A stretch of 64,000 bases of DNA from Escherichia phage WPEC6. The position numbers were made by a program, and so were the translations under genes. The DNA lies in sequence record PV763039.1; one strand, 5' to 3'. The notes beneath the pieces were generated by a model. The model was not told where the DNA came from. It did no database searches and saw nothing but the letters and a program-made list of their open reading frames with translations. This document shows positions 14,324 to 14,683 of this stretch, piece by piece; positions within the stretch are counted from its first letter, which is position 1; every line of letters begins with the position of its first letter.

Positions 14324-14361
14324 TCTTCCTCCTGTTCGGTATTATTCACCTGTGAGACACA

Positions 14362-14390
14362 ATGTAACACAAGCTTTGTGAGTTTGTCAA
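14362..14390 (-). promoter_or_regulatory. weak sigma70-like promoter candidate (leftward)
   Basis: minus-strand TTGACA (plus 14385-14390) with TTACAT/TACATT about 17 bp downstream. Confidence 0.3.
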
Positions 14391-14429
14391 GGATCTAATT
14401 ACATTCTACAGAAGAAGAGGGTTAATAAC

Positions 14430-14516
14430 TATAGGAATAGTCTTACTATAGGTGCAATACTAGTTAAGACTTAGATTGATAGGTAAGACTTATCTTAAAC
14501 AGATAATTGATAGGTG
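14430..14516. repeat. cluster of short direct repeats (iteron-like)
   Basis: TTGATAGGT at 14476-14484 and 14507-14515; TATAGG at 14430 and 14447; AAGACTTA twice; inside a 360 bp non-coding gap. Confidence 0.5.
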
Positions 14517-14602
14517 AATCAGCATTGACTTTTTCAAAAAAATATGGTACCCTAAACATATGTTTACGAGCGATAGCGAGTAGTAGATTTCTATATAATA
14601 AT

Positions 14603-14636
14603 GTTTCATGTTACTCACGATAGTGAGGTATGAAAC
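14603..14636. repeat. composite palindrome (nested inverted repeats)
   Basis: outer arms GTTTCAT / ATGAAAC (14603-14609, 14630-14636) enclosing inner CTCAC-GATA-GTGAG. Confidence 0.5.
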
Positions 14637-14683
14637 GTAAGTGAAGGTAGATAAACTATGATCATCTATCTACCATCTATTAA

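Follow-up and report, generated by a model that had tools for sequence, protein, structure and literature searches.

What occupies the 360 bp between positions 14324 and 14683 of a 64,000-nucleotide (nt) stretch of Escherichia phage WPEC6 (PV763039.1; this whole stretch is referred to below as the window), in a region where, judged by GC skew and annotation, genes run leftward from ~29 kb to ~11 kb? The gap is the largest intergenic stretch of this leftward block, as the original prediction had stated, and also the largest of the window; it is unannotated in most records, a few of which call open reading frames (ORFs) of 31–47 amino acids inside it. The original prediction took it for an iteron-like replication origin or a hub for regulator binding rather than a simple spacer. 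That the gap is a control region is borne out, whereas an iteron-type origin is unsupported, and the actual carriers of the conservation across genera are two elements that the prediction missed, namely a predicted promoter of the form TTGACT-17-TGgTACCCT and a hairpin, ACGAGCGATAGCGAGT. We suggest that the gap is a compound control region, the conserved core of which (~14474–14685) is an orphan non-coding transcription unit giving rise to an antisense or regulatory RNA, a reading to which we assign a probability of about 0.55. Judged from its sequence, the core bears the marks of a non-coding RNA gene, with its own predicted promoter, no conserved ORF and covarying hairpins. The element appears to be undescribed, having no counterpart in Rfam, in E. 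coli genomes or in the searchable literature.

A unit conserved beyond its flanking genes

The majority of database matches for the locus come from phages that are 95–100% identical; window positions 13000–16000 are 100% identical to Escherichia phages WPEC1, WPEC2 and WPEC4, and 98–99% identical to ~60 phAPEC8-like phages (Phapecoctavirus, Stephanstirmvirinae). The reach of conservation was established by a low-stringency database search with the gap sequence alone, in which gap positions 145–351 (14468–14674) align at ~83% in the divergent Phapecoctavirus members phiWec190 and PsgM04F, and a core of gap positions 198–294 (14521–14617) is kept at 79% in phi92 of the sister genus Justusliebigvirus. 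A shorter part of this core is retained in Citrobacter phage Tr1, with weaker matches in Klebsiella phages. The rest of the gap and the neighbouring genes do not align in the divergent phages. Indeed, the window contains no protein homologue of the 3-kb flank in phi92, and the flanks in Tr1 map to other window positions. The unit is thus kept across genera where the flanking genes are not, and its conservation exceeds theirs. Among seven Phapecoctavirus genomes, 14525–14683 shows 2.5 variable sites per 100 nt, compared with 3–5 in genes. Read on the plus strand, and so against the genes on both sides, the conserved core contains the following features.

14525–14553, plus strand: predicted rightward promoter, with −35 TTGACT (14525–14530), a 17-nt spacer and extended −10 TGgTACCCT (14545–14553; TGg at 14545–14547)
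14553–14566, no strand: perfect 14-bp palindrome TAAACATATGTTTA, straddling the predicted transcription start
14564–14583, plus strand: box hairpin, UUA-C-GA-GC-[GAUA]-GC-GA-G-UAG, with the box sequence ACGAGCGATAGCGAGT at 14566–14581
14584–14602, plus strand: AT-rich linker of 19 nt that contains TATAAT and has no variable site in close relatives
14603–14636, plus strand: hairpin B, a nested palindrome of GTTTCAT/ATGAAAC with inner CTCAC-GATA-GTGAG
14646–14674, plus strand: hairpin C, GGTAGATA / TATCTACC with a 13-nt loop
14665–14685, plus strand: 3' motif TCTATCTACCATCTATTAATC, the end of the conserved unit, which abuts the stop codon of gene 14684–14893

The predicted rightward promoter

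The TTGACT-17-TGgTACCCT pattern has a single exact match in the window. Across 14–18 variants from several genera, TTGAC and TG(C)TACCCT are invariant or nearly so, two lineages having TTTAC in place of TTGAC, and the spacer, which consists of a T-run followed by an A-run, measures 17–18 nt in all copies. Transcription is predicted to start near A14560. The −10 may bear some resemblance to the sigma-S consensus (C at −13 and −8). The predicted start is overlapped by the palindrome TAAACATATGTTTA, and most copies carry short palindromes of differing sequence at the same place, with summed stems of 65 compared with 45.3 ± 2.9 in shuffles, none of 2000 of which reaches the observed value.

A transcript from A14560 would open AUG UUU ACG AGC GAU AGC GAG UAG, a leaderless ORF of seven codons (14560–14583); it is also present in phiWec190 but lacks the ATG in Tr1 and is probably incidental. 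We also considered a second promoter on the TATAAT at 14594, with the box as its activator site, and rejected it, as the hexamer is unconserved and the box, far from accompanying many promoters, is limited to three copies per genome. The searchable literature on promoters and transcription in Phapecoctavirus and phAPEC8 contains no transcriptome or promoter mapping for this phage group and no mention of the element. For the related subfamily Vequintavirinae, the rV5 genome paper gives generic sigma-70 promoters only and does not place the origin, and there are no TACCCT or CGAGCG entries in its promoter table.

A hairpin with tandem G.A pairs

Every copy of the box has the form C-GA-GC-(loop)-GC-GA-G, with loops of GATA, GAA, GCA, GGGA and, once, GAAT. 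From the loop outwards, the hairpin is built of two GC base pairs capped by a G..A loop, of tandem G.A pairs arranged symmetrically as an internal loop, and of an outer Watson–Crick stem. This outer stem covaries, the first flanking pair being A-U in 5 of 14 variants and C-G in 8 of 14. Overall, pairing is seen in 93–95% of cells compared with 23–44% in slid-column controls, with compensatory changes from A-U to C-G, no shuffle reaches the covariation score, and RNAalifold recovers the hairpin independently in five orthologues of the copy in the gap. The box is single-copy in the window.

The core of the box, GCGATAGC at 14570–14577, obeys the mini-hairpin rule GCGNNAGC, with the tandem G.A pairs on either side, and 17 of 18 box variants follow this rule, the exception being the variant with the GAAT loop. 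The bare cores GCGNAGC and GCGNNAGC are found at chance frequency in the genome (33 and 30 copies, with ~28 expected for each), and the full box three times. As DNA, such mini-hairpins are extremely stable (Tm 70–76 °C for GCGNAGC) and they are much weaker as RNA (Kimoto & Hirao, PMC13037366); they have been reported at the primase origins of G4/St-1/alpha3, at RSF1010 ssiA and at early promoters of N4 (PMC13037366).

Three copies of the module per genome

Searched with a covariance model built on promoter and box, the ~160 kb of WPEC1 yield exactly three sites (77.5, 77.1 and 68.7 bits; next match 11.6 bits), and since these sites are the training sequences of the model, the informative part is the lack of further matches. 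A regular-expression census of WPEC1 agrees on three copies, and three are also present in the phi92-like phage PD06, in KP13-26 and in Tr1. The copies in WPEC1 are arranged as follows.

c1, in the gap: antisense to the flanking genes
c2, WPEC1 9268: sense, followed by a ~140-nt leader, a ribosome-binding site and a gene of 65 amino acids
c3, WPEC1 38768: between diverging genes upstream of the tRNA cluster, with two copies of GTACTCTGTACT and a pair of 10%-GC tracts after it

In five lineages (WPEC1, phiWec190, Tr1, KP13-26 and PD06) the c1 orthologue runs antisense to the genes beside it, while the other copies are sense and precede a ribosome-binding site and a gene; together these arrangements indicate that the plus strand is the functional strand. 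Two features are specific to c1, namely hairpin B and GATAG(G) at 10–13 nt upstream of the −35, the latter varying in orientation and number. The gene behind c1, on the side opposite to the genes that it faces, is homologous in WPEC1 and PD06 (39% identity). The c3 copy lies in a 480-bp divergent intergenic region (WPEC1, PV659873.1, 38593–39073) that holds further GTAC-rich words and long AT palindromes, and c3 of PD06 (L197) is laid out like that of WPEC1.

Downstream hairpins and the absence of a reading frame

The original prediction had described hairpin B as a nested palindrome, and this is real; its structure is conserved, with stem sequences that differ by lineage (ATTGC/GCAAT in phiWec190, ATAGTGT/ACACTAT in Tr1, AACAT/ATGTT in KP13-26 and TTCCATG/CATGGAA in PD06), and a CATGTTA motif is common across lineages. 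The TATAAT hexamer of the preceding linker, to which that prediction had also drawn attention, is present at 14594–14599 but is not conserved in relatives of other lineages. Hairpin C retains its stem GGTAGA/TCTACC and the loop ACTATGATCA in phiWec190 and PsgM04F, and the 3' motif TCTATCTACCATCTATTAATC has the homologues TCTATCTACTACCTATTAACC in KP13-26 and AACTAACCTATAACC in Tr1. The plus strand of the unit folds better than its shuffles (−32.2 kcal/mol, z = −2.75).

No intrinsic terminator was found in the gap on either strand; hairpins B and C, considered as terminators, were rejected because neither strand provides a U-tract. No reading frame is conserved across the unit. A plus-strand gene downstream was likewise discarded, as ORF 14658–14852 is the antisense shadow of the minus-strand gene for a membrane protein of a PHROG family. 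In Rfam searches, the window had no match that reached the gathering threshold and 14250–14750 had none even at E ≤ 10, and ARAGORN found no tRNA or tmRNA.

The module heads the leader of integrative islands

Beyond the subfamily, viral, metagenome and genome collections were scanned with a strict motif, earlier patterns of 14–15 bases having been swamped by chance matches on viral contigs. The full composite is present in integrative islands, represented by the IMG/VR contig L281, by L342, by the Citrobacter sp. OP27 chromosome, where the island is recorded under CP191518.1, and by a Buttiauxella metagenome-assembled genome. There it starts ~30 nt past the integrase gene, with which it is co-directional, and heads ~900 nt that lack large ORFs, upstream of small genes and of a DUF5906 (P4-type primase-like) protein. 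Between L281 and L342, the shared sequence is limited to 220 bp (88% identity), made up of the module and ~190 nt downstream. The island module and leader are 86–93% identical over ~42 nt to the third copies of KP13-26 and Tr1. In addition, each of the five phage lineages has a c1 unit with significant similarity to the island leader past the box, in hairpin B (with the stem CTTTCATG/CATGAAAG in the island leader), in GAGTATG and in the 3' motif, which reads TCTATCT..AACTAACCATTAACC in the islands. This similarity argues that c1 is a discrete homologous non-coding unit and not a chance assembly. Neither the phage unit nor the island unit has a match in 5,426 E. coli genomes.

Several further observations concern these contigs. 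In L281, the 29-nt 3' motif of the leader (..CTGATCTGAACTAACCATTAACC) at 4913–4941 is directly repeated 94 nt downstream at 5007–5035. In L342, the integrase gene and the module are separated by a thiamine pyrophosphate (TPP) riboswitch at 9598–9694, suggestive of an insertion beside a thiamine gene. Isolated composites occur in the unrelated contigs L287, L373 and L282, with long flanking stems not required by the pattern. That of L373, a contig with a T7-like terminase, is located within ~6280–6560; its box has a GCA loop and a GTAGTA/TACTAC stem, starts 1–2 nt after the −10, and is followed by TACGTAC- and GGTACC-rich repeats that resemble those after c3 of WPEC1.

Many other metagenome matches were false positives. 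Those in sample Ga0058701 belong to a high-copy repeat in which TGCTACCCT is paired with an upstream AGGGTAGCA; it occurs in L305, L337, L321 and ~50 other contigs, many of which it ends, in the order AGGGTAGCA..TGCTACCCT..CCGAGCGGAGCGAGG, followed by TAACCTAAC-type repeats and long palindromes, and is unrelated to the phage module, yet has the same GA-flanked mini-hairpin. Others were GC-rich chance matches and a dispersed bacterial repeat, ATTCCGAGCGAAGCGAGGAAT. In L294 and L304, a dispersed bacterial repeat of the form (G)TCATTCCGAGCGA(A/TA)GCGAGGAATC shows the same architecture of stem, C-GA-GC-loop-GC-GA-G and stem, so that this hairpin design recurs independently in nature.

A proposed orphan RNA directed against the leftward operon

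As we picture the orphan transcription unit, host RNA polymerase with sigma-70 would start near A14560 by way of the −35, the perfect spacing and the extended −10, and would produce an untranslated RNA of ~125 nt or longer in which the stable box hairpin, with its GA tandem and GNNA loop, forms first and is followed by hairpins B and C. Since the RNA would be made against the leftward early operon, it would most likely act in cis, through transcriptional interference or through pairing with read-through mRNA across the intergenic region. The upstream early genes would thereby be uncoupled from gene 14108–14323, which has its own predicted promoter at 14390–14361.

Several observations weigh against this proposal. 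The −10 TACCCT matches TATAAT at three of six positions only (T−12, A−11 and T−7), and a simple promoter scan misses the site. The palindrome at the start site cannot be explained by an RNA that begins 7 nt after the −10, and suggests a different start or a structure at the DNA level; some copies also pair the segment before the box with a G-run after it. The GCGNAGC/GCGNNAGC core is far stabler as DNA, and its natural examples sit at sites of replication or transcription initiation (PMC13037366). The minus strand of the unit folds at least as well as the plus strand (z = −3.66). No convincing plus-strand intrinsic terminator is present for more than 2 kb downstream, which leaves the 3' end of the RNA undefined. 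Finally, the genes that c1 faces are unrelated between genera, so that no specific antisense target gene emerges. The weak −10, the undefined 3' end, the start-site palindromes and the DNA-stable mini-hairpin keep two other explanations alive, one based on replication and one on a trans-acting factor.

Less likely alternatives: transcription-primed replication or a trans-acting factor

Under the first of these, which we regard as unlikely, the unit would be a transcription-primed origin in which the mini-hairpin of the non-template DNA strand stabilizes an R-loop and the RNA primes synthesis by the T7-type primase-helicase and Pol A. The fit of the box core to the DNA mini-hairpin rule in 17 of 18 variants is consistent with such a role, as such hairpins are found at initiation sites (PMC13037366), and the genome encodes a primase/helicase and DNA polymerase I. 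The start-site palindrome is easier to explain at the DNA level, and the antisense orientation of c1 would require no special explanation. AT-rich DNA accompanies several copies, with 10%-GC tracts after c3 in both WPEC1 and PD06 (in WPEC1 together with the two GTACTCTGTACT) and AT-rich repeats after the c1 orthologue of KP13-26, and L373 joins a GCA-loop box with TACGTAC-rich repeats. The gap itself, however, lacks a strongly AT-rich tract, with a minimum GC of 24–30%, and the AT-rich linker downstream of its box measures only 19 nt; c3 fits better, and as a candidate replication origin its region is far superior to the gap. Moreover, the sense copies are plain 5' leaders of genes, each with a ribosome-binding site, and the G.U wobbles of the outer stem suit RNA better than DNA. 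The searchable literature contains no origin mapping for the phage group.

The second explanation, which we consider doubtful, keeps the RNA but has it serve a trans-acting factor as cis-target or decoy: a phage or host protein would bind the box hairpin just past three early promoters, comparably to nut/boxB or put antitermination or to an RNA-binding regulator, and the orphan copy would titrate this factor or modify the polymerase so as to allow long antisense transcripts; the Citrobacter and Buttiauxella islands would then have copied the module to sense infection by such phages. An invariant, sequence-specific hairpin at a fixed distance after a special promoter, in three copies per genome, would be expected of such a target, and the sites nutL/nutR and putL/putR follow the same logic of promoter-proximal hairpins. 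The location of module and leader directly after the integrase gene in the integrase/DUF5906 islands points in the same direction, and the conserved T-run/A-run dyad of the promoter spacer, like the GATAG sites, hints at contacts with a protein. Against it, no boxA-like element or candidate antiterminator was identified, no dedicated test having been made for either, the proteins encoded beside the copies have no known domains or function, and antitermination of an antisense transcript has no obvious purpose. A more comprehensive version, which we put forward as a rather improbable conjecture, is that the module is the cis-target of a Stephanstirmvirinae trans-acting factor, which would recognize either the nascent-RNA hairpin or the mini-hairpin of the displaced strand, that the orphan copy is a regulatory or decoy RNA, and that the early operon of the islands is switched on by the infecting phage. 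If true, the islands that copied the module would represent a new route of helper–satellite signalling.

The direct repeats do not form an iteron array

The original prediction built its model of an iteron-type origin or regulator hub on the direct repeats of the gap (TTGATAGGT, TATAGG and AAGACTTA). The repeats exist at the places given: ATTGATAGGT at 14475–14484 and 14506–14515, 31 bp apart, ACTATAGG at 14428 and 14445, and TAAGACTTA at 14465 and 14484. Their number is marginal against dinucleotide shuffles of the gap, with three repeated 9-mers compared with 0.55 expected (p = 0.044), a longest direct repeat of 10 nt (p = 0.105) and p = 0.15 for repeated 7-mers, so that the two-copy 8–10-mers as a whole range from p ~0.04 to 0.15. 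The enrichment of motifs, which that prediction had itself proposed to check, was not found across the window: TTGATAGGT with at most one mismatch occurs 17 times compared with 18.9 expected, TAAGACTTA 12 times compared with 25.7, and GATAGG is depleted (14 compared with ~27). Iteron arrays are characterized by at least three direct repeats of ~17–22 bp at regular spacing, whereas the repeats here are two-copy only and 8–13 nt long. Nor does the gap contain an AT-rich tract that could serve for unwinding, its lowest 50-bp GC being 24–30% against a background of 38%.

The variability profile, obtained from an alignment of the seven Phapecoctavirus genomes, decides the question. The zone that holds most of the repeats (14391–14524) has 15–33 variable sites per 100 nt compared with 3–5 in the flanking genes, and evolves 3–5 times faster than genes; both TATAGG copies and the first AAGACTTA copy are themselves variable. 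No other part of the locus varies as much as this zone, and the repeats lack the conservation expected of iterons. Two features can be distinguished within it.

14391–14473, no strand: fast-evolving spacer that holds both ACTATAGG and the first TAAGACTTA, with 15–16 variable sites per 100 nt, some of them inside the repeats
14476–14484 and 14507–14515, plus strand: TTGATAGGT pair, centred near −80 and −49 of the predicted start, copy-specific candidate regulator sites

The spacer is not alignable in phiWec190-type phages, and its ACTATAGG and first TAAGACTTA repeats are probably due to chance or specific to the lineage. The TTGATAGGT copies, alone among the repeats, are both invariant in the seven genomes, lie on the same helical face, 31 bp apart, and are kept with this spacing in phiWec190. 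The proximal GATAGG stands exactly 10 nt before the −35 in the window, in phiWec190 and in Tr1, and the equivalent position has ATAGG in KP13-26 and an inverted CTATCAA in PD06. Read from its position at ~−49 and ~−80, the pair may provide candidate sites for a factor that tunes the rightward promoter.

The related GATAGG motifs to which the original prediction pointed near other control points do exist at 6824, 11537 and 33290, but their contexts share no common architecture, as they lie upstream of, inside or downstream of promoters with no shared register. Four or five of the 14 GATAGG copies in the window are intergenic, while intergenic DNA makes up ~7% of it, which speaks for the model; given the depletion of the motif and its heterogeneous contexts, we nevertheless reject GATAGG as a general control-point motif. 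In sum of these points, with no DNA unwinding element and with GATAG sites that differ in orientation and number between lineages, an origin or hub founded on the direct repeats appears very improbable. A terminator hairpin, AACCCGCTTCGGCGGGTT, is shared in opposite orientations by 6769–6786 and 11507–11528, and beside each of the two lie a strong promoter-like site and a GATAGG copy from among those cited above.

The leftward promoter and the flanking genes

Both genes that border the gap were judged to be real minus-strand genes, and the left part of the gap serves the first of them.

14108–14323, minus strand: gene of phrog_16110, left flank of the gap
14328–14333, minus strand: ribosome-binding site AGGAGG of gene 14108–14323, read from the sequence
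14390–14361, minus strand: sigma-70-type promoter, with TTGACA (14390–14385), an 18-nt spacer and TGtTACATT (14369–14361), predicted to feed gene 14108–14323
14684–14893, minus strand: gene of phrog_24123, a small membrane protein, right flank of the gap

The leftward promoter is the best promoter-like match of the region in the promoter scan (10 of 12 positions plus TG), and only one site within 14361–14390 varies among the seven genomes. It is an ordinary conventional promoter, missed by the original prediction and separate from the rightward unit.

With a good promoter for the downstream gene in place, the gap could be seen as an ordinary spacer, composed of this promoter and a weak terminator of the upstream gene and conserved through the close kinship of the compared phages. 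Hairpins B and C do follow the upstream stop codon on the minus strand, which folds well, and most database matches are indeed to phages of 95–100% identity. Neither strand, however, supplies a U-tract to the hairpins, the unit is conserved across genera unlike the flanking genes and has three paralogous copies per genome, and phi92, c2 of Tr1 and c2 of KP13-26 carry module and hairpin in sense, where there is no minus-strand gene to terminate. The cross-genus conservation largely refutes a spacer, which we hold to be highly unlikely.

A missed gene for a small protein, encoded by the minus-strand ORFs of 31–47 amino acids, is scarcely credible, for although such ORFs are annotated in WPEC1, phAPEC8, PsgM04F and others and a translated match links phiWec190 and the window, no minus-strand frame is conserved, box and promoter fall in differing frames by lineage, stops break the frame in Tr1, the ATG at 14559 is preceded by no Shine–Dalgarno sequence, and indels of 1–4 nt separate the conserved blocks. 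Several GenBank records call small ORFs across the unit; these are very likely spurious, which corrects the annotation.

Relation to known systems

The proposed orphan RNA resembles lambda OOP RNA and P22 sar, which are short antisense RNAs of phages, transcribed from constitutive sigma-70 promoters that converge on an operon; like them, it has a predicted orphan promoter that faces the 3' side of an operon, and it would be a short, structured, untranslated intergenic transcript. It differs from them in having neither an intrinsic terminator nor a conserved target gene, and in that the promoter and first hairpin of c1 are shared with two sense mRNA-leader copies per genome. The likeness to lambda nut boxB and HK022 put lies in a hairpin with a G..A-closed loop just after a few early promoters, in several copies and in promoter orientation. 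Here, however, the hairpin has a tandem G.A internal loop and a GNA or GNNA loop, one copy is antisense, the box is located at ~+5 to +24 rather than tens to hundreds of nt downstream, and no boxA or N-like protein was identified, neither having been the object of a dedicated test.

The box core is an exact instance of the DNA mini-hairpin motif of G4/St-1/alpha3, RSF1010 ssiA and N4 (PMC13037366), with loops of GATA, GAA, GCA and GGGA. In contrast to those examples, the core here forms only part of a hairpin, which is lengthened by tandem G.A pairs and by an outer stem that covaries, and it follows a sigma-70-type promoter in a double-stranded DNA phage. The T7 primary origin, composed of promoters and an AT-rich region, and T4 oriF/oriG, composed of a promoter and an unwinding element, offer a parallel in the succession of a promoter and structured and AT-rich DNA, and in the T7-type primase-helicase; the 10%-GC tracts follow c3, whereas the copy in the gap has no strongly AT-rich tract. 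The islands recall the leaders of P4-type satellites, since in Citrobacter and Buttiauxella the module comes after the integrase gene, followed by ~900 nt without large ORFs and then the DUF5906 primase-like gene. No sequence similarity to P4 itself was found, no test having been aimed at it, and the window, unlike such satellites, comes from a virulent myovirus in which the unit has no integrase nearby.

How early genes are controlled and how replication is initiated is uncharted in the phAPEC8/phi92 group, although the use of its members in therapy against pathogenic E. coli and Klebsiella is widely proposed. The element described here is compact and more conserved than the surrounding genes, combines a special −10 with a hairpin whose core motif is noted for its extreme stability, and links virulent phages with integrative islands. 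Its predicted transcript and any binding partners would bear on the organisation of immediate-early transcription, on a possible use of antisense transcription in early operons and on possible eavesdropping by satellites.

Other features of the window and its relatives

A crude gene map gives the second-largest ORF-free stretch of the window as 7793–8139 (347 bp), between plus-strand genes. The minus-strand ORF 13676–13882, of ~65–68 amino acids, is a "DNA ligase" according to RefSeq and several GenBank records, which is implausible by its size; the true ATP-dependent ligase is encoded at 31665–32780 of WPEC1. Four phages assigned to other hosts (B15, vB_AbaM_ABPW7, PsgM04F and ZCKP1, listed as "Campylobacter, Acinetobacter, Pseudomonas, Klebsiella" phages) are 84–99.9% identical to E. 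coli Phapecoctavirus at the locus, and their host labels may deserve scrutiny. Finally, a single phiWec190 ORF matches five places in the leftward block at 26–35% identity (15662–15979, 16964–17284, 19916–20233, 20672–20986 and 28531–28860), which points to a paralogous family of early proteins of ~110–140 amino acids, represented at least five times.

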